From assembly GCA_964344555.1 (NCBI GenBank), contig CAYFNK010000004.1, forward strand, positions 494 to 64,493: a DNA stretch of 64,000 bases, written 5' to 3'. The stretch is from Candidatus Woesearchaeota archaeon. Its GTDB lineage: Archaea > Nanobdellota > Nanobdellia > SCGC-AAA011-G17 > PNOQ01. The notes under the pieces are model-generated. The model did no database searches. It saw nothing but the letters and a program-made list of their open reading frames with translations, and had not been told where the DNA came from. Each line of letters begins with the position of its first letter. Position 1 is the stretch's first letter. Below are positions 1,356 through 59,117 of the stretch, in pieces. The position numbers and the translations under genes are program-made.

Positions 1356-1521
1356 ATTAAACTTTTATCAACTTTTAAGTATTGATGGAGTAAAAGAAGG
1401 CGGTAATGAGAACTTAGAAGGAGTTCAGGAAGATAAAGCTGTTAAGAGATTCTATAAGAAGTGGTGGTTCTGGTTACTTATTGTTTTGGTAATCGGTTTT
1501 ATTGTTTTTAACTATCTGTGA
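1348..1521 (+). CDS. Unlisted 57-aa tail-anchored ORF (hypothetical)
   Basis: ATG at 1348 overlaps the stop of the previous ORF. Translation is MNELNFYQLLSIDGVKEGG...KKWWFWLLIVLVIGFIVFNYL, with a C-terminal TM. Below the size cutoff of the ORF track. Confidence 0.25.
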   Translation: MNELNFYQLLSIDGVKEGGNENLEGVQEDKAVKRFYKKWWFWLLIVLVIGFIVFNYL

Positions 1522-2002
1522 ATTTAGTATTTTTTAGTTTCTCTAGTTCTTCTTTTGAAACGATATTATCTTGATTAGTGTCTGCATCTCTTCCTATTTG
1601 TTTTAGAAAGTCTTCAATATATTGAGTATAGTGTTCTAAATGGTGTTTTTTCTTATGTTCTGGCCAAAATTCTTCAAAACCTATATATTTCATAAAAAGG
1701 TCTTCTATTATCGGGACGTATGAAGTTTTTGTCCATTTGTCCCCCATAAATGGGACTACAAAATCATAATTTTCATAATCATTTGGACCTAATTCTCTTT
1801 CTGCAAGTATTTCTTGATCTTTAATATTGTACCACTTTTTTAGTAAAGAATTATTATATTTTGGTTTGTAATCTTTTTCTAATTGTTCTGCTGAAGAGTA
1901 AACAAATTCTTTTGTATTTTGCAATCTTTTTAGTATATCTTCTTTTTCACAACCTGTTAATACAAGTGTTGAGAGAACAATTGGATATATTTTTTTAATC
2001 AT
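1508..2002 (-). CDS. Putative lipoprotein (hypothetical)
   Basis: N-terminus MIKKIYPIVLSTLVLTGCEKE is a signal peptide plus lipobox-like LTGC. There is a 4-nt overlap with the upstream gene. Confidence 0.5.
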   Translation of the reverse strand: MIKKIYPIVLSTLVLTGCEKEDILKRLQNTKEFVYSSAEQLEKDYKPKYNNSLLKKWYNIKDQEILAERELGPNDYENYDFVVPFMGDKWTKTSYVPIIEDLFMKYIGFEEFWPEHKKKHHLEHYTQYIEDFLKQIGRDADTNQDNIVSKEELEKLKNTKFTDS

Positions 2003-3748: not shown

Positions 3749-3840
3749 GCGTCAGTAGGATAGTGGTAGTCCTCAACGTTGCCAATAAATTATTTTGAAG
3801 CAAAAACGTTGGAGCCCGGGTTCAATCCCCGGCTGACGCA
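3749..3840 (+). tRNA. tRNA-Gly(GCC) with a 21-nt canonical 37/38 intron (3785..3805)
   Basis: Acceptor GCGTCAG/CTGACGC plus A73, anticodon stem CAACG/CGTTG, loop TTGCCA|A, T arm CCGGG-TTCAATC-CCCGG. BHB: TTGC pairs with GCAA, flanked by 3-nt bulges CAA and AAA. Confidence 0.88.
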
Positions 3841-5408: not shown

Positions 5409-5618
5409 CTATATTATACTTAGTCTTCTGAGAGCAAATCCTAACCATAAAACAAGAACTAGATATAATGCACTCCAGCCTTTTGATGCAGGAAATATAT
5501 TAGAAGTTTTTTTGTACTTTTTTTTGTACCATTTAGAAAAGAACCAAGTCATAAGATTTGCCCCTAAACTATCTATGAGAATAATGTACCATAGAATTGC
5601 TTCAATGTTCCATGTCAT
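5409..5618 (-). CDS. Small membrane protein (hypothetical)
   Basis: 69-aa ORF with two hydrophobic helices, adjacent to the next membrane ORF. Confidence 0.35.
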   Translation of the reverse strand: MTWNIEAILWYIILIDSLGANLMTWFFSKWYKKKYKKTSNIFPASKGWSALYLVLVLWLGFALRRLSII

Positions 5619-5620
5619 AT

Positions 5621-5983
5621 TTACTTTTTATTTTTAGAATATAAAAAGTTTTGTATTGGAAAGTAGAATCCAATTAGAGAACCAATCAGTGGAAATGCTA
5701 GTTGAATGAATCCTATTGCCGGAGTGATTAATATTAGTATAACTCCTAATCCAGAACCTATTGCAGTTCCTATAAATTTAGAAAAATATTCTTTTTTGTT
5801 GAATTCTTTTGTTAGTTTAGCCGATAATGCTCCAACGCCCCATACTCCTAATGTAAGCCAAAATGGCCAAATAATAAGTTCCCAGCCGTTACCTATTCCT
5901 AAAGCGTAAGTTCCTGAGAATGCTAGAATATGTCCAACTATTGATTGTATTGGTATTGTAATTATTGTTTGAAGTATTCTCAT
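5621..5983 (-). CDS. Integral membrane protein (hypothetical)
   Basis: 120 aa, about 4 predicted TM helices, Gly-rich helices. Confidence 0.45.
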   Translation of the reverse strand: MRILQTIITIPIQSIVGHILAFSGTYALGIGNGWELIIWPFWLTLGVWGVGALSAKLTKEFNKKEYFSKFIGTAIGSGLGVILILITPAIGFIQLAFPLIGSLIGFYFPIQNFLYSKNKK

Positions 5984-6677: not shown

Positions 6678-6766
6678 AGCCTCAGGAGAGATTCGAACTC
6701 TCAACCTGCTGCTATCTTTGGATTAACCCATACAAGGCAGCTGCTCTACCGTTGAGCCACTGAGGC
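6678..6766 (-). tRNA. tRNA-Thr(TGT) with a 17-nt intron at 37/38 (6714..6730)
   Basis: Minus-strand read: GCCTCAG TG GCTC AACGGTA GAGC A GCTGC CTTGTA[TGGGTTAATCCAAAGAT]A GCAGC AGGTT GAGAG TTCGAAT CTCTC CTGAGGC T. Confidence 0.85.
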
Positions 6767-6799: not shown

Positions 6800-6852
6800 G
6801 ATTTCTAATAGATTAAGGATATTCTTATAAAGAAGTTAAGTAAAATTTAGTT

Positions 6853-7317
6853 ATGGAAAGAAGAGGAATATCTCCGTTGATAGCAACTATATTATTAGTT
6901 GGAATAACAATTATTGTTTCTGTTATTGTTTTTACTTTTGTTAGAACTATCGCTGAAGAGAAAGTAAGTGAAACCGAAGCTCATACAAATATTGCTTTAG
7001 CTTGTTCTCAAAATGTTAAATTAGAATATGATGATCCTTTTCCTTGTGGGATTAATAATTCTTTGAATATTTCTGTTTGGAATAAAGGACCTCTCGATAT
7101 TATTGATTTAAAAATACAAGTTTTAGGTGGAAGTAATTCTTATTTGCATCCTATTGATGGTTTAGAATCCTATTATAAGGATCTTTATAATCTGAATATT
7201 GGTTTTGGTGTTGAATATATTGATAAAATAAATTTGATACCAACTATAGAAATTAATGAAGTAAATGGCTCTTGTAGTCCTACTGTGATTGAAATTAGTT
7301 CTATTTCGGAATGCTAG
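6853..7317 (+). CDS. Archaeal type IV pilin-like protein (class III signal peptide)
   Basis: N-terminus MERRGISPLIATILLVGITIIVSVIVF matches the archaeal prepilin/archaellin-type signal: a basic residue-Gly cleavage site followed by a hydrophobic helix. Confidence 0.7.
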   Translation: MERRGISPLIATILLVGITIIVSVIVFTFVRTIAEEKVSETEAHTNIALACSQNVKLEYDDPFPCGINNSLNISVWNKGPLDIIDLKIQVLGGSNSYLHPIDGLESYYKDLYNLNIGFGVEYIDKINLIPTIEINEVNGSCSPTVIEISSISEC

Positions 7318-7381: not shown

Positions 7382-10300
7382 ATGGATTTCAAAAAAAGAG
7401 GTTTGTTTATTTTTGTAATTTTGTCTGTTTTATTTATTTCTAGTTGTGAAGATTTACAACTTTCTCCTGAAGAAGCAGAAAAACTTGAAAAGGCTTTAAG
7501 AAGTGAAAGGACTATTTGTACTGAAGAAGTTCTAGAATATTGTAGTGATTGTGGAGAATTTAGCAATCTTGTTGAAATAACTTGTTGGGAAGAAGACGTA
7601 GGTTGTTCTTCTCACTCTGAATGTGGTCAAGGAGAATATTGTCATAGTACGGGAGAATGTGTAACTTATAGCGATAATTATTGTATCAACAATGATTGTT
7701 TCTTGGGAGATGGCGACTGTGATCCTAATCAGTGTAATACTGGAGTATGTAGTCAAACTTTAGATAATTGTAATTTTGGTAATGGTATAACTAATGATGC
7801 CGATTGTTGTGTAAGTTGTTTGCCAACTGGTAATGAGTGTAATAGTGATTCAGAGTGTTGTAATAATAATTGTAATAATAATGGATTTTGTGCTGTAGGC
7901 GGAGGGGGAGGAGGAGAGCCAGACATTCCTGTTTCAGAACTTTTACATTCTCCAAGGGTTAGAGATGGACCTAGAGATACAGTTGTTATAGAAAAAGAAT
8001 TGTTCCAAAAGTTGGAGAGAAATTATAGAGATCTTGGTCTTTTAACTCCAGTTGATAGGAGAAGAGTTAGAACTACAACAGAATGTAGATATAATCCTTT
8101 ATGTAGAGATAGTTGTAGTGATGGTTTGGCAGGAGGAAGAAGTAATCTTATAGATGGCGATTCTCCTGAGTGCCAGAGTAGAGTTGAGAGACAGATCAGT
8201 ATTTGTAAACATATCTTTAATAGTGAAGGACATCCATTATATTCTGGTGCCCAAGGTTATGGTAGATGTTCTGGAGAGCAAGGACATACTGGAAATATTC
8301 AAAACCCCCAAGTTGTAGATGATGAAGGTTACGGATATCAAACTCTTTATTATGTTGAAGTAACTAGTTATTATGATAGTACATGTAGTAATTTTTTGAA
8401 TTCTAATGCACCTTGTGGTAGTCAAACTTGTTATTTAGCTAAAGATTCCTATATTTATAATTTAACTTATGATGGGAGCGCAGGTTTTAATAATGTTATA
8501 GGGGATTGTAATAATATTGTTTACAAAGGAGATCTTTATTGTCAAGGTTTTGCTGATGGATTAAACTATGTAGAGTGTGATCCTGCAGTTGATGATGATT
8601 GTGTTGCAGGAGACTATACTCCTTATTATGGTGCTGATTCTATCTCAGGATATTGGACTCCTGCTGATCCTTTAGATGGGTGGACTTTTGAGGAAGTTGA
8701 AACTTATTATAATACCGTTTTCCCAGTTCTTAATGAGAATGGGGAAGATGTAGGAAGTCATTATGATTGTGGGTTAGGTCCTCTTTCTTGTAATTATTCT
8801 ATTCCTGAGTCTCAAACAGTAACTTGTGAACTTGGAGATATATTGGGAGGAGAGCCTATATACTGGTTGAATTCTACTTTAGATGGATCTACTCCTGGAT
8901 GTAGTTATGGGAATCGTACTAGGGAATGTGCATCTGATTTCTTGTATCATGATACTTGGAGCGAGTGTACAGGTAATGCCCCTTTAAGTGAATATTGTAA
9001 TGATGGAATAGATAACGATTGTGATGGTTATGCAGATGATCAAGATACTTCATTTAATAGTGATTATTATGAAAGTAATGATTTTACTGCTGATTGTGGG
9101 GCGTGTGTTAATGAAAGTATAGATGAACAATCTTGTGGCCCTGGTGTGAATTATGAAGGGGTTGGTCTTTGTAATTCTGGTGTTGAAACACGAACTTGTG
9201 GATATGATTGGGGAAATGATTTGTGGGTTTATGGAGAGTGGGAAGGATGTAATGCAACTTTTCCAGTATCTGAATCTGGTGAAAGATGTAATGACGGAGA
9301 TGATAATGATTGTGATGGTGAGGTTGATTCTTATGATAGTGATTGTGGAATTTGTTTAGATGGAGAAGAAGAAAGTGGTACTTGTGGTGAGACTGATGAG
9401 GGATTATGTGAGTATGGTACTCATAAAAGGTCTTGCGAATTTTTTTCTGATATAGGCAATTGGAGTTGGGGAGAATGGTATAATCCAGATACAGGTGTTG
9501 TTGATGATTTTAATACTGCAGATGTAGATGAGAGCTGTGGAGGAGATTATGTTGCTCCAGAGCCAGAAGCTGCAGATCCAGGATATAATGCTCCTTGTAA
9601 TGATGAAGATGATAATGACTGTGATGGTCTTGCTGATTCGACAGACGATGAATGTCAAAATCCTTTACTTACATGTACAGAAGGTGCACAGGAAAGCCAA
9701 TATTGTGAATATCCAGAAGGGCTTGGAGAGTGTTCTACTGGAGGTCAATTCACTGCAAACTGTATTTTTGATTTAAGTGAAGGTTGGTGGGAATATGAAG
9801 AATGGACCTTTGATGGAGATTCAGATGGTTCAGAGTGTTCTGGGGCTACATGGTCGGAAGAAGAGATATGTTTTAACGGATTAGATGATGATTGTGATGG
9901 CGATACTGATGAGGGATGTTCTTCTGAAGATTTTGTTTCTTATTATGTTAAAAATCATTATTTCATAAGCGGTGCTCCTCCTTTGACAAATAATGTTAGA
10001 AATGGTATAGAGAATTCCCTGGAAGTAGGTGGAGATGGAGCTGCTCAAATTGTTTATTGGGACGAAGTTTCAGAATCTGGTCAACATTTGGCTCATGCTA
10101 AGTATGTTGGAGTGGGTGGAAATTGTGGATATGAAGGTTCTCCAAGTAATCCTCAAGTTGTAAATAATCTTTATTGTGAATTTATAGATGTTGGAGATGG
10201 TGGAGCAGTTCTTATTGAACAAGAAAATGATTTAGTTTTAGATGATAATAATAATGCGCATGTAGTTTATATGAAAACTGATTGGAATAACCATCCTTTC

Positions 10301-11206
10301 TTTAGCTTAAATTATGCTGAATATGTTGGAACTGGAGGAAATTGTGGATATGATTCTAATTTATCCAATTTAGCGCATACTCCTACAGAAAGTATTAATC
10401 AGAAATGGAATTGTAATTCTTTGGTTGAGGGAGATATGATGTATAGTCCTAATTTAATGATTGTAAGTGGTACTCCTTATTTTACTTACCTTATTGGAAC
10501 TAATTTAGAAGTTGGTAACTTTGTTTCAGAAAGTTATAGTTCTCTTGGCTCTTATGATTTAGGTCACGATACTTCTTTTGGCAATTTGGCTAGCCATTAT
10601 GAAGGAGAAATTTTATACAACTTAATTTTAACTAACAATTTCAAAATAATTTATGTTGAATATGATATTTCTTCAGGAACGTTTACTAGTATAACTGTAA
10701 GTGAACAAATAAATCCTGCCGGAGTTATAGGTTTAACTGAAATAGATTTGAATGTAGATTCAAGTGGTACTGTCCATATAGTTTATCCTTCTGATTATTC
10801 TGAAGAGATAGAGGGAGAAACATTAGAAAAAATGAAGTTAGTGCATAAGATTAAATCTGGATCTTCTTTTGTAGATTATTCTCCTACATCTAGTGTGTTT
10901 GATATGGATTCAGGTTTTGATGCTCAGATTGAATTTACTTTGGATAATCTTCCAGTTATAGCTTATGAAACTGGGTTGTATAATCCAATAGACCCTGATG
11001 CACCGGTTTATTCAAGACTACAATCTGATGAAATAAATTGGGAACATAGTTCAATAGAAGATAGTGGAGTTAAGTCAGGACATTATATTGAAATAGATTT
11101 GGATAGCCAGAATAAAATACATTCTGCCTTTGTAAGGGTGAGAAGCTCCCAAGATTCTGAGTATTTAGACTTCCTTACTTATTCAGTGATGATCCCTACG
11201 GCATAA
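7382..11206 (+). CDS. Giant secreted cysteine-rich lipoprotein (1274 aa): knottin-like N-terminal cassette, four CxDGxDNDCDG modules, repeat-rich C-terminal domain
   Basis: Signal plus lipobox FISSC. Cys-dense N-terminal module followed by a Gly6 linker. Motifs CNDGIDNDCDG, CNDGDDNDCDG, CNDEDDNDCDG and CFNGLDDDCDG. The C-terminal part repeats YVG(V/T)GGNCGY. Confidence 0.85.
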   Translation: MDFKKRGLFIFVILSVLFISSCEDLQLSPEEAEKLEKALRSERTICTEEVLEYCSDCGEFSNLVEITCWEEDVGCSSHSECGQGEYCHSTGECVTYSDNYCINNDCFLGDGDCDPNQCNTGVCSQTLDNCNFGNGITNDADCCVSCLPTGNECNSDSECCNNNCNNNGFCAVGGGGGGEPDIPVSELLHSPRVRDGPRDTVVIEKELFQKLERNYRDLGLLTPVDRRRVRTTTECRYNPLCRDSCSDGLAGGRSNLIDGDSPECQSRVERQISICKHIFNSEGHPLYSGAQGYGRCSGEQGHTGNIQNPQVVDDEGYGYQTLYYVEVTSYYDSTCSNFLNSNAPCGSQTCYLAKDSYIYNLTYDGSAGFNNVIGDCNNIVYKGDLYCQGFADGLNYVECDPAVDDDCVAGDYTPYYGADSISGYWTPADPLDGWTFEEVETYYNTVFPVLNENGEDVGSHYDCGLGPLSCNYSIPESQTVTCELGDILGGEPIYWLNSTLDGSTPGCSYGNRTRECASDFLYHDTWSECTGNAPLSEYCNDGIDNDCDGYADDQDTSFNSDYYESNDFTADCGACVNESIDEQSCGPGVNYEGVGLCNSGVETRTCGYDWGNDLWVYGEWEGCNATFPVSESGERCNDGDDNDCDGEVDSYDSDCGICLDGEEESGTCGETDEGLCEYGTHKRSCEFFSDIGNWSWGEWYNPDTGVVDDFNTADVDESCGGDYVAPEPEAADPGYNAPCNDEDDNDCDGLADSTDDECQNPLLTCTEGAQESQYCEYPEGLGECSTGGQFTANCIFDLSEGWWEYEEWTFDGDSDGSECSGATWSEEEICFNGLDDDCDGDTDEGCSSEDFVSYYVKNHYFISGAPPLTNNVRNGIENSLEVGGDGAAQIVYWDEVSESGQHLAHAKYVGVGGNCGYEGSPSNPQVVNNLYCEFIDVGDGGAVLIEQENDLVLDDNNNAHVVYMKTDWNNHPFFSLNYAEYVGTGGNCGYDSNLSNLAHTPTESINQKWNCNSLVEGDMMYSPNLMIVSGTPYFTYLIGTNLEVGNFVSESYSSLGSYDLGHDTSFGNLASHYEGEILYNLILTNNFKIIYVEYDISSGTFTSITVSEQINPAGVIGLTEIDLNVDSSGTVHIVYPSDYSEEIEGETLEKMKLVHKIKSGSSFVDYSPTSSVFDMDSGFDAQIEFTLDNLPVIAYETGLYNPIDPDAPVYSRLQSDEINWEHSSIEDSGVKSGHYIEIDLDSQNKIHSAFVRVRSSQDSEYLDFLTYSVMIPTA
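7601..7953. repeat. Copy 1 of a 353-bp near-identical cassette (partner at 11427..11779)
   Basis: Manual alignment gives 3 mismatches in 353 nt (7650 g/t, 7676 a/g, 7690 c/t, approximate positions). Flanks diverge abruptly on both sides. Confidence 0.9.
8996..9901 (+). repeat. Four roughly 91-103-aa intragenic modules, each ending in C-x-[DN]-[GE]-x-D-[DN]-D-C-D-G
   Basis: Motif starts at 8996, 9287, 9596 and 9869. It resembles the Myxococcus-type Cys-rich repeat / MopE-like putative metal-binding motif (from memory, not searched). Confidence 0.7.
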
Positions 11207-11219
11207 TTTAGTAATTTTC

Positions 11220-13055
11220 ATGGTTAATAATAAAAGTTTAAAGTTTTTAGTATTGTTTTTATTAGTTATTTTTATTTCTTCTTGTGTTCAAGAAGATAGC
11301 CCTAGAGCACCAATAAATGTAGATAATCGTCAATGGATTGATGATGGTTGTCGTTATGGTGATTGGGAAGACCCTGAAGATTATTGTAAGCCTGGGGAGA
11401 TGTTTCAGATTTTGGTAGAGGATGAAGGTTGTTCTTCTCACTCTGAATGTGGTCAAGGAGAATATTGTCATAGTACTGGAGAATGTGTAACTTATAGCGA
11501 TGATTATTGTATCAATAATGATTGTTTCTTGGGAGATGGCGACTGTGATCCTAATCAGTGTAATACTGGAGTATGTAGTCAAACTTTAGATAATTGTAAT
11601 TTTGGTAATGGTATAACTAATGATGCCGATTGTTGTGTAAGTTGTTTGCCAACTGGTAATGAGTGTAATAGTGATTCAGAGTGTTGTAATAATAATTGTA
11701 ATAATAATGGATTTTGTGCTGTAGGCGGAGGGGGAGGAGGAGAGCCAGACATTCCTGTTTCAGAACTTTTACATTCTCCTGGTGTTGGAAGAAATACAAA
11801 AAACGATATGAATAATAGAGATTTTAATTGGTTTTTGAAAAAAATTAGATTACGAGAAAAAGAAAGTATTTTTAGTTATAGGGAAGACAATATGCAGTGT
11901 ATTCCGCATCCTGCTTGTTCAACTTGTGTAGATTTGCATGCCAATAATTATGATGAAAATATTGATTTATTGTCTTATGGTTGCGATTATTATGCAGATG
12001 AAAGAGATTTGTCCATTAGAACAGATTCATTTTGTAAACGAACATTCCACTTCTCTACAGGTCCATTTTTCCTTTCTGAAGGAAATGGAGCATGCGAAAG
12101 CGAGCAACATCCTGGAGAAGGATGTTCTGCAGTAGGAGAAGGATATGCAGTAAGTAATGTGGCATATACAAGACAATTTGATGGATCGGATTGGATTTCT
12201 AATGAAAATCTTTGTATAAGTGAAGGTGATAATTGTTGCATACTTCCTGGAACAGATGCTTATAATCCATTTGGCATACTTAGTCTTGATGATGCTTCTG
12301 ATCCAAATGCTTATTTGGAAGGATGGGCCTGTTGCGAATTGAATGAGGATTTATCAAATGATCCAAATTGGGGAAGTAATAGCCTAAGTTTCTTTAGATA
12401 CTGCGGAGATAATTTGTGTCAAGGATGGTTAGATTCTCAGAATCCTTCTCAAGTGTGTAGGGGACCAAATAATGATTTCCCAAGTAGTTATCCTGGTAGT
12501 GTTGATTGTATTCCTGATCCTGATTGGGAGAATGAGTATAGGGAAACATATGAGTCTTGTGTTTATAATACAAATGAACAAGAATTTAGAGATTGTGCTG
12601 ATTGTGTGTGGGTTGATGAAAATGGAGATCATAACTATGACTGTGATCCGGTGACAGAAACTATATATTTTGATTGTAGAACCGATACTTCTTGTGATTC
12701 GGGAGAGCAAGAGATATCTGGATTTTATTTAAGTAATCCGACTAATGGTCACGTGAGTACTAGTTATTCTAGTGATTATGACTGGAGAATATGTTGTAAT
12801 CCTGAACAGTTTACTGTTTCTACAGAAAGTGAAACTCAATTTTTGAGTTTGTCCTCAAATGATAATGCTCATGTTGCGCAGCCTGATACTTCTGGATATA
12901 CAAATTATGGAATAAGCGATCTTAGTAGTTGTAATATTGTAAGTGGAGGTTGTTCCGAAGAACAATTTTGTGTTTTGTCTATGAGTTCATTGAATAATGC
13001 ACACGCTGCATCATGCAATCAAGAAAATTATCCTTACAAGGTATGCTGTAGTTAG
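11220..13055 (+). CDS. Secreted cysteine-rich lipoprotein (611 aa) sharing the N-terminal cassette with the upstream gene and carrying a different C-terminus
   Basis: Signal plus lipobox FISSC. Residues about 70-187 are nearly identical to the 7382 gene product. The C-terminal part is divergent, with three N-[AG]-H...CC repeats. Confidence 0.85.
   Translation: MVNNKSLKFLVLFLLVIFISSCVQEDSPRAPINVDNRQWIDDGCRYGDWEDPEDYCKPGEMFQILVEDEGCSSHSECGQGEYCHSTGECVTYSDDYCINNDCFLGDGDCDPNQCNTGVCSQTLDNCNFGNGITNDADCCVSCLPTGNECNSDSECCNNNCNNNGFCAVGGGGGGEPDIPVSELLHSPGVGRNTKNDMNNRDFNWFLKKIRLREKESIFSYREDNMQCIPHPACSTCVDLHANNYDENIDLLSYGCDYYADERDLSIRTDSFCKRTFHFSTGPFFLSEGNGACESEQHPGEGCSAVGEGYAVSNVAYTRQFDGSDWISNENLCISEGDNCCILPGTDAYNPFGILSLDDASDPNAYLEGWACCELNEDLSNDPNWGSNSLSFFRYCGDNLCQGWLDSQNPSQVCRGPNNDFPSSYPGSVDCIPDPDWENEYRETYESCVYNTNEQEFRDCADCVWVDENGDHNYDCDPVTETIYFDCRTDTSCDSGEQEISGFYLSNPTNGHVSTSYSSDYDWRICCNPEQFTVSTESETQFLSLSSNDNAHVAQPDTSGYTNYGISDLSSCNIVSGGCSEEQFCVLSMSSLNNAHAASCNQENYPYKVCCS
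11427..11779. repeat. Copy 2 of the 353-bp near-identical cassette
   Basis: See copy 1. Same reading frame and same position relative to the lipobox in both genes. Confidence 0.9.
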
Positions 13056-13082
13056 AAAACTATTTAAATAAAATAAAATAAA

Positions 13083-14231
13083 ATGAAGTATATGAAAAAA
13101 AGAGGTATATCTCCATTAATAGCAACTATTCTTTTAGTAGGATTAGTTATAGTTATTGCTTTAATTGTTTTTAACTGGATTACTTTTCTTGCACAGTATA
13201 AATTAGATGAAACTGGAGAGACTATTGATATTTATTCTTCTAGCTTAGACTTTGATTTTGAATGTACAAATGATGTTGATAATGGAAAGTTTAAGGTTTT
13301 GTTCCATAATGAATATGACGGACCAATAACATCTTTTGTTATTGTTTTTGATGATGGAAGTATACGGGAAGTGGGAAAAGATGAGGTTTATCTAAATTCT
13401 TTTGAATCTAAACTTGAAATATATGGGGGAGATGATTATTTGAGTACCAATAATTTAAGAGTTATTCCTCAAATCCAAATCGGTGATGAGTTGAAGACTT
13501 TGAATTATAAAGAAGTAACCAAAAGTTGCGAAGGGGAAATTATTGATGAAGGAGATAACGGAGAAAGTCATACTACCCCAATTACTAGTTGTGAAGTTAT
13601 TGATTTTCCTGGAAACTATGAAATAACAGTTGATCTTGAGATAGAAAATCAGAAAGATTGCATTGTAATAGACTCTGATGATGTTACACTTACTTGTTCT
13701 GAAGGACGTAATATAAGTGCTGAAACATTGGGGGGACAATCTCAAGAGTTTAGGGCATCTGGTATAAAAGTAGAAAATTCAGATAATGTTATATTGGATT
13801 TAGGAGATTGTATAATTTCGAATTTTTATTATGGTCTTTGGATTGTTGATTCCGAAGGAACCCAAATTAATGAAGGAGTAATTGGAAATACTGCTCAACA
13901 TGGACTAATTATTGGAAATTATGAATTTGGACCTGATAGAGGCAGCCCTAATACTATCATTAACGGATTATCTAGAACAGAAACTATGAATCTTCAATCT
14001 GGCTTAAATATTATAAGTGTAGAAATTGGATCTCTTAATACTGAAGTAAACGATTTAGATCTTTGTGGATTTGTTTTGTATTGCTCTCAAGTTGAAGGAG
14101 CAGAAGGAACTCTGAGTGTATCAGGTTCAAATAATACTCTTGCATATGTTGAAGAGAATTCAGATTATGAAGACTGTGAGGATGTCAATTTAACTGAAGA
14201 ATGTTCGCTTGGAGGGTGTTTGACATGCTAA
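13083..14231 (+). CDS. Pilin-like N-terminus fused to a beta-helix-like, Cys-containing extracellular domain
   Basis: MKYMKKRGISPLIATILLVGLVIVIALIVF is a class III signal; the RGISPLIATILLVG stretch is identical to that of the 6853 gene. The C-terminal region has repeated G-x-x-I/V-x-N-S patterns (IKVENSDNVILDLGDCIISN, GLWIVDSEGTQINEGVIGN, HGLIIGN) typical of right-handed beta-helix proteins. Confidence 0.7.
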   Translation: MKYMKKRGISPLIATILLVGLVIVIALIVFNWITFLAQYKLDETGETIDIYSSSLDFDFECTNDVDNGKFKVLFHNEYDGPITSFVIVFDDGSIREVGKDEVYLNSFESKLEIYGGDDYLSTNNLRVIPQIQIGDELKTLNYKEVTKSCEGEIIDEGDNGESHTTPITSCEVIDFPGNYEITVDLEIENQKDCIVIDSDDVTLTCSEGRNISAETLGGQSQEFRASGIKVENSDNVILDLGDCIISNFYYGLWIVDSEGTQINEGVIGNTAQHGLIIGNYEFGPDRGSPNTIINGLSRTETMNLQSGLNIISVEIGSLNTEVNDLDLCGFVLYCSQVEGAEGTLSVSGSNNTLAYVEENSDYEDCEDVNLTEECSLGGCLTC

Positions 14232-21308: not shown

Positions 21309-22354
21309 GTGGTTAAACTTATAACTTGCTCATCTTTATCAAATCAAGCCATCTGTTCTTACCTAACTCTAATTTAGGAATAGCTAATTCATAAGGACGA
21401 CAGCCTATTCCTTGATGTTTTCTTATGAAGTTATAATAGATTTCATAACCTTTCATGATCGCAGAAGCAGATTCTATACAACCATGAAAGCCACGCATGA
21501 CTTTTGTTCTTTCCCTAATGGAATTATGTAATCTCTCGATAGGATGGTTAAACCCTCTTTCAGAAGCTATTACAACATTATGAATGATTGGACTTTTGTG
21601 ATTCCAATGGGTTTTCAGACCAAAACTTTTCTTTAGCATTCTTGGGTAGCCCTTAAGTCCATCAGTTGTTATAACCTTAACTTGGCTTCCTGTTGCAAAC
21701 TTACCTCTTTTTAGAACTTTAACCATGTTATCTATTGTTCTGCTTCTCATATAACCAGAAGAAACCATGAATCTCGTTGTTGTATCCATTACATCAACAA
21801 ACCAGTTTTGTTCTCTGCCTTTCTGATATTTGCTTATTCTTCTGTGATACTCCATTTCATCAGATTGTAATTCAACTCCAGATTTGACTTGTAAGCTGTC
21901 TGTTAAATTGCTTATCATAACTGCATATTTTACAATCAAGCGATAAGCAGTAGAATAATGACAATTCTTGGGATAGAACGTTTTAAGATGCTCTTGTATC
22001 TTCCTAAAACTCATTCCATTGTAATACAAATCCATACAGAGAGTGATTTTCTTTTCGTGATTTTTCATCTTATAAAAACCCTCATCAATAGAAAATCTTT
22101 TGCCACAATCTTTGCAACCAAATCTTTGAACCTTGCCTCTGTGTTCGGTTTTTCTTATTCCTCTTTTGATTACCTTGTTAGAACTACAAAAAATACAAGA
22201 AACTTTTTTATACTTCTGTTCTATTATTTCTTTGGATTTCATTTGTTTAGAGACGTTTGGAATCTAGAGGGTGTTAACGCACCCTCTTACTTTATTTAGT
22301 ATAACTATACAAAGTAATACTTCTATATAAACCTTTCGGAGTTAAGTAACCACT
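21308..22354 (-). mobile_element. IS6-like insertion sequence (about 1.05 kb)
   Basis: A single transposase ORF is flanked by imperfect terminal inverted repeats: left AGTGGTTAAACTTATAACT (21308-) and the reverse complement of the right end, AGTGGTTACTTAACTCC (ends at 22354). The first 8 nt are identical, with gapped matches beyond. No target duplication seen. Confidence 0.55.
21319..22242 (-). CDS. DDE transposase, IS6-family-like, with an N-terminal zinc finger
   Basis: CIFCSSNKV...CKDCGKRF zinc finger. Candidate DDE segments are SDEMEY...WFVDVMDTTT, VITTDGLKGYP and IERLHNSIRERTKVMRGFH. Confidence 0.75.
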   Translation of the reverse strand: MKSKEIIEQKYKKVSCIFCSSNKVIKRGIRKTEHRGKVQRFGCKDCGKRFSIDEGFYKMKNHEKKITLCMDLYYNGMSFRKIQEHLKTFYPKNCHYSTAYRLIVKYAVMISNLTDSLQVKSGVELQSDEMEYHRRISKYQKGREQNWFVDVMDTTTRFMVSSGYMRSRTIDNMVKVLKRGKFATGSQVKVITTDGLKGYPRMLKKSFGLKTHWNHKSPIIHNVVIASERGFNHPIERLHNSIRERTKVMRGFHGCIESASAIMKGYEIYYNFIRKHQGIGCRPYELAIPKLELGKNRWLDLIKMSKL

Positions 22355-29090: not shown

Positions 29091-29181
29091 GGGGCTATAG
29101 TTCAACAGCAGAATACCGGTCTCCAGAATATTTAAAAAATGGAGTAAACCGGCGATGGGAGTGCAAATCTCTCTGGCCCCA
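29091..29181 (+). tRNA. tRNA-Trp(CCA) with a 20-nt canonical intron (29127..29146)
   Basis: GGGGCTA TA GTTC AACAGCA GAAT A CCGGT CTCCAG[AATATTTAAAAAATGGAGTA]A ACCGG CGAT GGGAG TGCAAAT CTCTC TGGCCCC A. BHB: CTCC pairs with GGAG, bulges AGA and TAA. Confidence 0.85.
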
Positions 29182-32750: not shown

Positions 32751-33002
32751 ATGGCTGAAGGAGATCAATATCGTTGTGACTGGTGTACTTTCTCTTGGAG
32801 AACTAAAAGCGATTCCAATCCAATAAGGTGTCCTAGTTGTGGACATGGTAATATAATTAATGAAGCAGAGAGTTTTAGAAAAATATTAGGTAAAGAAAAT
32901 ATTCTTGATGTAGATAAGAAACTTAAAAAGAAACCTGAAGTTGTTGAAGAAGAAGTTGAAGAAGAAAAAGGTTTTTTCTCTAAAATATTTAAGAAAAAAT
33001 GA
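32751..33002 (+). CDS. Zinc-ribbon protein with an acidic/basic tail
   Basis: YRCDWCTFSWRTKSDSNPIRCPSCGHG has the same pattern as the 22411 ORF. Confidence 0.45.
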   Translation: MAEGDQYRCDWCTFSWRTKSDSNPIRCPSCGHGNIINEAESFRKILGKENILDVDKKLKKKPEVVEEEVEEEKGFFSKIFKKK

Positions 33003-33074
33003 AGGAAGTTTTTGTGTTCTTTTTTCACCCTTAGCTTTATGCATAAGTCAAAAAGTGTGGTTGAAACTTCCTAA

Positions 33075-33194
33075 TCCCACCACCAGGATTCGAACCTGGG
33101 ACCCCCCGGGTACGGCTGACCATCTTTCATCTAAGGTTTATACCTAATCGGATAGCATCTACAGCCGAGTGCTCTACCGCTGAGCTATAGTGGG
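33075..33194 (-). tRNA. tRNA-Tyr(GTA) with an intron of about 48 nt (about 33111..33158)
   Basis: Minus-strand read: CCCACTA TA GCTC AGCGGTA GAGC A CTCGG CTGTAG[...48 nt...]C CCGGG GGGTC CCAGG TTCGAAT CCTGG TGGTGGG A. The C1-G72 pair and A73 are the archaeal/eukaryal Tyr identity set. Confidence 0.85.
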
Positions 33195-53732: not shown

Positions 53733-53925
53733 TTAATATCACAAAATCATATTAATTTCTCAAATTTTTTTTATTTTTTATATAATGTTGGAAGTTTTTG
53801 TCTCTTTTTTCACACCTATCTTATGTATAAGTCTAAAAGCGTCCAGAAACTTCCAAGTTTGGAATTATTTCTTAATTTAAAATATTTATGAAAAAAATTA
53901 TAAAGGATTAAATAATAATAATCTT

Positions 53926-58148: not shown

Positions 58149-59117
58149 TTATCTTTCCTGAAGAGTATTTCCATTAAGATTATTGTTTAATCTATATGTT
58201 AAATAGAATCTTGCTCTTGCTCCTTGATCTTTAGTTAAAAATTCTCTGTCTCCATATCTACTCATTAGGTTATCTAGTGGTGGCGTATAATCTGGCCCAC
58301 ATTCTTCGTATTCACTTTGTTCTTCTCCAGGTTTCTGTGTTTGAAAGATATAGCTGCATTCTAATGCTTCTTCACAAAAAGTATAACAATCATATGAAGT
58401 ATCACATATATAGTCTCCAATTTTGTAACATTCTTCTGCTGAGTTTGCCCAGTTCGGAGGACCACTAACAGGATAGTCGTCTGTTTCTACAGGAGTTAAG
58501 CCTTCTATGCTGTCTCTTGGAGGTGCCTGACTATCTTTGTGTGTATGTCTAAGTCCTAGGGCATGGCCAAGTTCATGAGAAGGGATAAAACTAGTTTCTA
58601 AAGTTGTTGCCCTAACTGTTGTTAAATGATATTCTGAATTTGTCCAAGGATAATGACTATAAGCCCCCCAGCCGTCTGTGACTAAAACTATGTTTAGATT
58701 AGTAGGATTGTAATTGTTTTTGAATTCTTCTCCTAAATCAGACACTGAAACTCCATCTCCATATTCTATTGTTGTTTCTCCTGCTGTGTTTTCTGTTTCT
58801 CCAAGTTCTGGAAATTGAGAGTTTACGTATATTGCTTCTTCTAGTTCAAAGTTTATTCCATGGGAGTTGTAAACAGTGTTTATTAGATCTATCCCTTTTT
58901 GTATTGATTCTTCATTAGATATGTATTGATTATTGTCTTTGTAAACGAAAAAAGTTAAACCTATTGTTTTTGAAGGTCCGTTTAAACAGTTTAAGCCAGG
59001 ATATGGAAACTCTTCGGATGTTTCTTCCCAGTATTCATATTCATTACAGTAATCTGTTTCTTGTGAACAACTACTTATTAGAATTAGGGTTAGGATTATA
59101 ATTATCTCTTTTTTCAT
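58149..59117 (-). CDS. Secreted zinc metalloprotease lipoprotein (metzincin/M43-like)
   Basis: Signal plus lipobox LILISSC. HELGHALGLRHTH is the HExxHxxGxxH zinc site. Multiple Cys in the C-terminal part. Confidence 0.75.
   Translation of the reverse strand: MKKEIIIILTLILISSCSQETDYCNEYEYWEETSEEFPYPGLNCLNGPSKTIGLTFFVYKDNNQYISNEESIQKGIDLINTVYNSHGINFELEEAIYVNSQFPELGETENTAGETTIEYGDGVSVSDLGEEFKNNYNPTNLNIVLVTDGWGAYSHYPWTNSEYHLTTVRATTLETSFIPSHELGHALGLRHTHKDSQAPPRDSIEGLTPVETDDYPVSGPPNWANSAEECYKIGDYICDTSYDCYTFCEEALECSYIFQTQKPGEEQSEYEECGPDYTPPLDNLMSRYGDREFLTKDQGARARFYLTYRLNNNLNGNTLQER

Follow-up and report, generated by a model that had tools for sequence, protein, structure and literature searches.

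Introduction

In Helicobacter pylori, chimeras among babA, babB and babC arise by gene conversion between paralogous genes for outer-membrane adhesins (PMC4552749, PMC5483490), and long-lasting gene conversion between duplicated mtrA genes has been described for methanogenic archaea (PMC4632066). Here, we report a related case from a window of 64,000 nucleotides (64 kb) of a Candidatus Woesearchaeota archaeon (contig CAYFNK010000004.1), the window being the whole stretch of DNA that was analysed. Two adjacent genes on its plus strand, termed A and B, encode Cys-rich predicted lipoproteins and share a nearly identical cassette in frame. The event amounts to ectopic gene conversion, or a domain swap, within a pair of archaeal surface-protein genes; it is a known kind of event, and its mechanism is not new. 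We consider it probable that B acquired its cassette recently, when about 363 bp of the neighbouring gene A, or of a somewhat earlier form of that gene, were copied into it non-reciprocally and in frame, most probably overwriting a different Cys-rich module, termed M3.

The best analogue is the conversion between the complete adhesin paralogues babA and babB and, within the archaea, that of the duplicated mtrA genes. In the bab case, as in the A/B pair, a segment has passed non-reciprocally from one complete, expressed gene for a surface protein to its paralogue, leaving a near-identical part beside a diverged rest. However, the bab genes lie at dispersed loci and share long 5' and 3' homology driving RecA-dependent conversion, whereas A and B are adjacent archaeal genes with flanks lacking usable homology, and the segment appears to have replaced a non-homologous module. 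The likeness to mtrA lies in interlocus conversion of tandem or nearby archaeal paralogues, detected as a higher identity between paralogues than between orthologues. The mtrA genes, in contrast, encode a core enzyme, are homologous over their whole length and have long been kept alike, whereas here a single extracellular module within otherwise unalignable genes is concerned, and the event can be dated to after a recent lineage split.

Results

An in-frame cassette shared by two neighbouring genes

A first reading of the window from its letters alone (the sequence-only reading) had claimed a 353-bp cassette with three mismatches, in frame in both genes. Exact alignment bore this out: positions 7601-7953 and 11427-11779, at an offset of 3826, are identical at 350 of 353 positions (MAFFT and in-register comparison), and both copies lie in codon phase 0 of the open reading frames (ORFs) A and B. 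The core mismatches are synonymous at 7651 and 7690 and exchange Asn for Asp at 7676. The same-register identity falls to chance level on either side of both copies, where the sequences are unalignable, just as the abrupt divergence of the flanks had been described, albeit with a tract slightly longer than noted: comparison with the orthologue of A (A', see below) extends it to about 363 bp, of which 356 are identical. The breakpoints of copy 2 fall within 11411-11418 on the 5' side and within 11780-11797 on the 3' side. The BLASTN comparison of the window with itself that had been proposed as a check returned the cassette pair as a match of 369 bp at 97.8% identity (E = 0), besides just two short, weak pairs; within the 64-kb window, no third copy was found by blastn or by tblastn. 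The features of the two genes are as follows.

7382..11206, plus strand: gene A, a Cys-rich predicted lipoprotein of 1274 residues and the donor lineage of the cassette (ORF and lipobox pattern)
7382..7447, plus strand: signal peptide and lipobox of gene A, MDFKKRGLFIFVILSVLFISSC (translation and lipobox regular expression)
7601..7953, plus strand: cassette copy 1, core; full copied tract about 7592-7954
7604-7810, plus strand: module M1, about 70 residues with 12 Cys and a GDGDCD core
7691..7953, plus strand: perfect 263-bp stretch, identical to 11517-11779
7817-7891, plus strand: module M2, 25 residues with the Cys spacing C-x6-C-x5-CC-x3-C-x5-C
7895-7954, plus strand: Gly6-EPDIPVSELLHSP linker, the 3' part of the cassette
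11220..13055, plus strand: gene B, a Cys-rich predicted lipoprotein of 611 residues and the presumed cassette recipient (ORF; orthologue B' in the contig L001)
11220..11285, plus strand: signal peptide and lipobox of gene B, MVNNKSLKFLVLFLLVIFISSC (translation and lipobox pattern)
11427..11779, plus strand: cassette copy 2, core; full copied tract about 11418-11780

A and B are consecutive ORFs separated by a spacer of 13 nt. Their translations agree with the description of the cassette as a Cys-rich module followed by a Gly6 linker in two lipoproteins, both of which carry a FISSC lipobox.

The seven differences in the full tract are, in A/B order, A/G, C/T, T/A, G/T, A/G, C/T and A/T. They are unevenly spread: six fall within the initial 99 nt and the seventh on the final base, with 263 clean bases between. 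A difference-free run that long has P = 0.0007 by permutation when seven differences are scattered over 363 nt. We read the perfect stretch as the youngest homogenised segment. The suggestion of ongoing gene conversion holds in this weak sense, as the uneven differences fit repeated or ongoing homogenisation.

The repeat in independent assemblies

The repeat exceeds typical k-mers, independent assemblies break within it or at its edge, and only the window's own contig passes through copy B, which together would suit a second copy produced by a collapsed or mis-joined repeat or by a chimeric contig. We examined this possibility at the contig level with assemblies from ENA and Logan of the runs ERR2281800, ERR2281804 and ERR2281805. 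Related contigs were retrieved via exact protein look-ups, and the locus was reached through A and the downstream genes, protein B (P0001) not being on record.

The contig L007 (ENA ERZ930065, ERR2281800, 6171 bp) has nine differences to the window near 5438-5806 and is thus a distinct contig. From 5807 to its end at 11603 it equals the window, comprising all of A, the spacer, the unique 5' part of B and the first 177 bp of the B cassette with three B-specific bases, so that it covers the 5' junction of copy 2 and spans the A copy completely. On the other side, L013/L015 (ENA ERZ930069, ERR2281804, 60 kb) begin at 11653, exactly 127 nt before 11780, the first base specific to the 3' side of B, and their contig names indicate k = 127. 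The Logan contigs L014 (ERR2281800) and L016 (ERR2281805) begin at 11750, exactly 30 nt before the same base, which would be k-1 if they were built with k = 31. L013/L015, L014 and L016 run identically through the 3' part of B, the first of two mismatches lying more than 6 kb downstream, and the assemblies from all three runs match the window wherever they overlap the locus.

Such breaks exactly at the edge of the repeat, in different runs and assemblers, are the signature of a genuine repeat with two entries and two exits. Because L007 passes through the A copy into the body of A, the only pairing left is that of the B 5' side with the B 3' side, and this pairing preserves the open frame and the gene order seen in the orthologous contig L001. 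An artefact is extremely improbable also on other grounds. Copy B has variants of its own that match ancestral states of A', both junctions are in frame and give an ORF of 611 residues with flanks orthologous to B', and the two junctions were recovered separately, the 5' one in L007 and the 3' one in three more contigs from three runs and two assemblers, these contigs starting exactly k or, presumably, k-1 bases ahead of the first unique base. The repeat is real and not an assembly artefact, the outcome that had been named beforehand as fatal to the claim; at the contig level, the independent assemblies gave no sign of it.

The last 127-mer of L007 starts exactly at 11477, a site that distinguishes A from B. 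Its end could reflect a variant of copy B with the other base at 11477 (a mosaic tract) in that sample or, equally, an assembler quirk.

Direction and timing of the copying

Among 5.8 billion proteins, B has a single full-length relative, B' (P0002, 564 residues, 73% identical), and so has A, namely A' (P0006, 1240 residues, 82% identical). Both are encoded on one 6-kb Logan contig, L001 (A' at L001:538-4260 and B' at L001:4274-5968), in the order pilin, A', B', and the 13-nt spacer between A and B is identical there. A and A' share 86.6% nucleotide identity overall, and A' carries the cassette (with 312 of the 363 tract positions shared with A). On either side of the cassette, B and B' are 87-89% identical, whereas identity drops to about 52%, i.e., unalignable, across its position. 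There, B' has the different and shorter Cys-rich module M3, CITDSDCTSPDEPYCENSWQPNVGTCVECLTDAHCPYPQQCTLSGNCYT, followed by a related linker, GGEPCPPEICEVVKSPE, and B is 47 residues longer than B'.

Inside the tract, A and B are 98.1% identical, as opposed to 86.0% for A and A' and 87.3% for B and A'. The synonymous divergence (dS) in the tract is 0.074 between A and B and 0.59 between A and A', while gene-wide values between orthologues are 0.39-0.41. The identity between paralogues thus exceeds that between orthologues inside the tract only; outside it, A and B are mutually unalignable. The claim of a very recent duplication or conversion against a diverged background, for which a comparison of synonymous divergence had been recommended, is thereby substantiated, with a cassette dS of 0.07 between A and B against 0.39-0.6 between orthologues. 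A tandem duplication of the whole gene was rejected as the source of the identity, given the unalignable flanks and a B' without the cassette.

When the seven differences are polarised by A', B holds the A' base at six (7594, 7597, 7599, 7651, 7690 and 7954) and A at one (7676), from which it follows that the whole B tract, including its edges, descends from the A lineage. As judged from these alignments of sequence, the cassette in B is shown to have been copied from the A lineage after the split of the window and L001 lineages. From the shares of derived changes, we roughly estimate that the copy is a fifth to a quarter as old as that split. The event is non-reciprocal, that is, gene conversion in the broad sense: M3 is absent anywhere in the window, whereas A and A' both retain the cassette. 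The loss of M3 from B, and with it the non-reciprocity, depends on B' representing the ancestral state.

A proposed course of events

If B' is ancestral, about 75 codons (M3 and its linker) would have been replaced in frame by about 122 codons (M1, M2 and linker), which fits B being 47 residues longer than B'. The N-terminal plan is collinear in the A and B' proteins, comprising a signal peptide, a Cys-containing spacer, a Cys-rich module, a Gly-rich stretch and GGEP..P...E...SP. At the DNA level, the first 750 nt of A have no match longer than 10 nt in B', and residual similarity between A and B outside the tract amounts to 15 nt or less. Flanking homology adequate for classical homologous recombination was not found at the ends of the tract. 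As the DNA of donor and presumed recipient matches over no more than a few bases at the breakpoints, the initial event was most likely illegitimate. We infer that the first copy would have arisen by microhomology-mediated recombination or repair, or by replicative template switching, between genes lying 3.8 kb apart on the same strand, and that selection would have kept an in-frame product with boundaries at module boundaries. The resulting repeats of about 360 bp could then have served ordinary homologous gene conversion that re-homogenised the interior. Such a second round would account for a perfect 263-bp core with slightly older differences at its edges. Later homogenisation is suggested by how unevenly the differences are spread; alternatives are a mosaic donor or a chance clustering of substitutions in A. 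As a plausible consequence, B would display the N-terminal surface module of A on an unchanged body.

Several points tell against this account. The linkage through the repeat, as well as heterogeneity and deletions, rests on assemblies, and the breakpoints are not placeable to the base, as B and B' are poorly alignable for about six codons past the tract. With L001 as the single comparison genome, B' is the presumed and not the proven ancestral state of B. Moreover, over 127 nt the M3 of B' (L001:4454-4580) shares 88% nucleotide identity with that of a different lipoprotein gene, P0014 of the contigs L008 and L009 (L008:10635-10761); L001 and L009 come from sister runs (SRR31802809 and SRR31802808, respectively). 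This similarity suggests that M3 has likewise been copied between genes, not long ago, and would also be compatible with a replacement that took place in the L001 lineage. Finally, six derived changes in A versus one in B are unexpected for a simple copy from A to B followed by clock-like divergence, and could point to another donor allele or to an unsampled third copy, the search having covered 64 kb of the genome.

The similarity between the two M3 modules would suit the main rival account, a long-standing concerted evolution of A and B. Here, M1 and M2 would have been present in both genes before the split and been kept alike by recurrent conversion, and the L001 lineage would have swapped in M3. 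A module M3 that was itself mobile fairly recently agrees with this scenario, and so do the differences at the tract edges around a perfect core, typical of repeated conversion, and the possibility that A and B are old paralogues (hhalign E = 6.6e-4, see below). We nevertheless hold it to be unlikely, because two or more events would be required, including an illegitimate replacement like that in the favoured account. Conversion between old paralogues would also be expected to leave a diverged yet alignable paralogous flank, of which 15 nt or less exist, and even the edge positions of B carry A'-like states. Recent copying of the present B cassette from an A-lineage sequence holds in the concerted scenario and in the one we favour alike.

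The skew of six to one is, in turn, what a donor other than the resident A would explain, be it an unsampled third genomic copy or an A allele imported from another strain, since B resembles an older A; the limited portion of the genome covered leaves scope for such a donor. Against it, the window holds no third copy, the protein databases gave only A, B, A' and B' as close relatives, and a 6:1 split of seven changes is statistically not compelling. We regard this donor as very unlikely and retain the copy from the neighbouring gene A as the probable origin of the cassette in B.

Comparison with dedicated variation systems

Cassette-based antigenic variation, as in pilE/pilS of Neisseria, vlsE of Borrelia and msp2 of Anaplasma, relies on silent donor arrays, one expression site and high-frequency switching. 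The A/B locus resembles these systems in the segmental, unidirectional copying into a surface-protein gene; silent arrays, a single expression site and high-frequency switching are, however, not seen here. The window contains only two copies of the cassette, both inside complete genes, and no silent or partial donor cassettes; cassette antigenic variation was rejected for the lack of silent or orphan cassettes in the window. A polymorphic toxin, contact-dependent inhibition (CDI) or Rhs-like locus was rejected as well: there is no toxin domain, the gene downstream is pilin-like, and the window has no orphan C-terminal fragments. Neither Pfam nor NCBIfam gave toxin or immunity domains in A and B.

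Diversity-generating retroelements (DGRs) of DPANN archaea and candidate phyla radiation (CPR) bacteria are documented to diversify surface or binding proteins via a pair of template and variable repeats (PMC5758913, PMC6349945). The repeats of a DGR diverge solely where the template has an adenine, and a reverse transcriptase is needed, whereas here the differences fall on every kind of base, and no reverse-transcriptase domain was found in ORFs of at least 150 residues up to 55.9 kb of the window. A and B were rejected as DGR targets because the mismatches are not confined to adenines and the scanned ORFs lack a reverse transcriptase.

Any dedicated system, whether cassette exchange serving antigenic or phase variation, a locus akin to those of polymorphic toxins or mutagenesis by a DGR, is therefore a most improbable explanation, even though A and B are surface-protein genes, modules are shuffled among their relatives, and the direct repeats could mediate deletion or the formation of chimeras. 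The end of L007 at 11603 (last 127-mer from 11477) is a weak hint of a population variant in its favour. Apart from the lack of silent or orphan cassettes in the window, no toxin, immunity or recombinase domains adjoin A and B, the pattern of mismatches and the scanned ORFs speak against a DGR, and the event homogenises A and B rather than diversifying them. The sequence-only reading had likened the architecture to polymorphic toxin/adhesin or antigenic-variation loci. This likeness was not sustained: both genes are complete, without toxin or immunity domains and without silent or orphan cassettes in the window, and the event made A and B more alike, not more diverse.

Protein architecture and relatives of the modules

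The N-termini of A and B consist of a basic n-region, a hydrophobic h-region and I-S-S-C at residues 19-22, matching the lipobox regular expression [LVI][ASTVI][GAS]C. The motif definition was taken from a study that reports lipoproteins as prevalent in DPANN archaea (PMC12462473). On this pattern, A and B are lipobox lipoproteins of the archaeal, AliA/AliB-dependent pathway, with lipidation predicted.

Outside the cassette, A and B had been described as having unrelated C-termini. BLASTP of A against B without the cassette indeed found nothing significant; a comparison of the A/A' and B/B' profiles, however, gave a weak collinear match that begins just past the cassette and spans 154 columns (hhalign E = 6.6e-4, probability 27%), so that the description, though largely borne out, may not hold for this part. 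Motifs common to both profiles are C-x3-P-x-C-x2-C-x-D, S-x-CK-x2-F...G-x-G-x-C-x2-EQ and Y-x-GD-x2-CQG. As far as the profiles indicate, the two proteins may be tandem paralogues of great age in their first 400 or so residues. Nothing in B corresponds to the remaining 870 or so residues of A, which comprise MopE-like repeats and a C-terminal part rich in beta structure. The repeats occupy a region that varies between A and A':

9002..9541, plus strand: hypervariable middle of A (residues 541-720), with repeats resembling the MopE motif C-x-D-x-DDNDCDG

Nucleotide identity between A and A' is 54-72% in this middle, as opposed to 82-98% elsewhere in the gene, with an omega of about 0.87 and a length difference of 34 residues. 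Its match to Pfam Cu-binding_MopE (16.6 bits, E = 0.0096) lies below the 27-bit gathering cutoff and is a resemblance only. The middle of A is probably a second site of module turnover.

The bodies and modules of A and B had no significant match in Pfam, NCBIfam or PDB sequences. AlphaFold2 models were too poor for fold comparison, with a predicted local distance difference test score (pLDDT) of 57.5 for the cassette, modelled from a 22-sequence alignment of the module, and of 30 for the C-terminal 430 residues of A. A full HMMER scan of 1.84 billion cluster representatives retrieved only 31 proteins with an M1-type module at E <= 1e-3; by its sequence, M1 is a rare, unclassified and predicted extracellular module. 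Its carriers show the module in varied settings. P0003 is a lipoprotein of 541 residues with 4-5 copies of M1 and leucine-rich repeats, P0004/P0014 (353 residues in P0014) is a lipoprotein with M1 followed by M3, and P0018 is an M1-type protein with an INSC lipobox-like signal peptide. The contig L012 encodes M1 twice within a giant surface protein of 2196 residues, and several proteins of the scan have a related CG.GDGDCD..QC repeat beside metalloprotease-like regions. GTDB representative genomes yielded only 25-residue matches to the GDGDCD motif, in Binatia and Thermodesulfobacteriota. In JGI metagenomes, we found no relatives of B and two distant carriers of M1 at 46% identity, and a search of viral contigs gave no match.

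The epidermal growth factor (EGF) and Lin12/Notch repeat (LNR) modules of eukaryotes are small, disulfide-rich extracellular modules shuffled between proteins. The autonomous Cys-rich modules of about 25-70 residues described here are similarly reused in varied order and copy number (P0003, P0004 and L012). Unlike in eukaryotes, there are no introns, so the shuffling must occur by in-frame DNA recombination. The GDGDCD core of M1 may resemble LNR or Ca-binding motifs.

A second, syntenic lipoprotein slot was seen in two related archaeal contigs. The regions L008:9769-10830 (encoding P0014) and L010:3735-5360 (encoding P0003) have flanks of 82-85% identity; collinearity extends as far as the signal peptide and resumes at the stop codon, while the mature protein is completely different. 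Together with the hypervariable middle of A, this swapped body makes module turnover look like a general property of these lipoproteins. Both contigs also carry genes for RNase P p30 and DUF357. A further gene, at L008:7616-8344 and L010:1557-2285, has a match on record to Pfam PF01790 (Lgt) and lies some 1.5 kb away from that of the lipobox lipoprotein. The PF01790 gene may encode an AliA-type enzyme, a type described as only marginally Lgt-like (PMC12462473).

Genomic setting

Pilin-like genes flank the lipoprotein pair on both sides:

6853..7317, plus strand: pilin-like gene 1 (archaeal type IV), directly 5' of gene A, a position kept in L001
13083..14231, plus strand: pilin-like gene 2, 382 residues, with a type IV pilin N-terminus and a C-terminal extension (TIGR02537)

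Pilin 1 scores above the cutoffs of both Pfam Pilin_N PF07790 (30.8 bits against 25.2) and TIGR02537 (32.7 against 20), and pilin-like gene 2 above that of TIGR02537 (28.1 against 20), its Pilin_N match of 18.4 bits being below the cutoff. The 5' ends of the two pilin genes (13076-13173 and 6838-6934) are 76.5% identical over 98 bp. The A/B locus may have originated by an old duplication of a unit made of a pilin and a lipoprotein gene. On the 3' side of pilin-like gene 2 lies a gene for an RsmB/F-family RNA methyltransferase (Pfam Methyltr_RsmB-F).

The window is archaeal chromosome with 30% GC (guanine plus cytosine) and encodes a split RpoB, RpoA'/A'', EF-2, EF-1alpha, S7, FttA, a proteasome subunit, TrmB, an archaeal CCA-adding enzyme and intron-containing tRNAs. 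The tRNA genes at 3749-3840, 6678-6766, 29091-29181 and 33075-33194 are 89-120 nt long, hence the introns; ARAGORN and Rfam each overlook some tRNAs that the other detects. A 74-bp direct repeat of 79.7% identity (32998-33071 and 53784-53854), one copy of which abuts the intron-containing tRNA at 33075-33194 (minus strand), could be an undetected tRNA or tRNA fragment. The ORF at 21319-22242 (minus strand), about 8 kb from the locus, has a weak match to DDE_Tnp_IS240 (E = 2e-4, below the cutoff) and is possibly a degenerate transposase. Further lipobox-type signal peptides, LTGC at 1508-2002 (minus strand) and ISSC at 58149-59117 (minus strand), belong to genes without the cassette modules.

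Significance

The A/B locus presents an unusually clean domain swap in an uncultivated archaeon, for which a date, a direction and limits accurate to a few bases can be given. The donor, the recipient, the replaced module as preserved in the orthologue and a putative later homogenisation are all visible in one case. The case shows that extracellular Cys-rich modules of archaeal lipoproteins move between non-homologous settings, in frame and with neither introns nor mobile elements. It also shows that the direct repeats left by such a transfer, here 3.8 kb apart, offer a substrate for deletion or for further conversion. Within the genome, A and B became homogenised at their N-termini, yet B changed relative to other strains.

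From their composition and anchoring, A and B are probably disulfide-rich, surface-anchored binding proteins and, given their pilin neighbours, they plausibly have a role in attachment. This pilin-flanked pair of orphan lipoproteins offers fast-evolving surface candidates for host interaction in DPANN-type archaea. A broader interpretation would see the locus as a snapshot of a recurrent, selectively favoured re-assortment of disulfide-rich modules among pilin-adjacent lipoproteins in small-genome (DPANN-like) archaea. We judge it distinctly improbable as matters stand, and keep it in view because of the swapped body in L008 and L010, the hypervariable middle of A, the 88% identical M3 in two genes and the two-step pattern of the cassette. 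If true, it would constitute an archaeal, recombination-based counterpart of bacterial surface-protein variation that operates without silent cassettes or DGRs, presumably at the surface of contact with the host.

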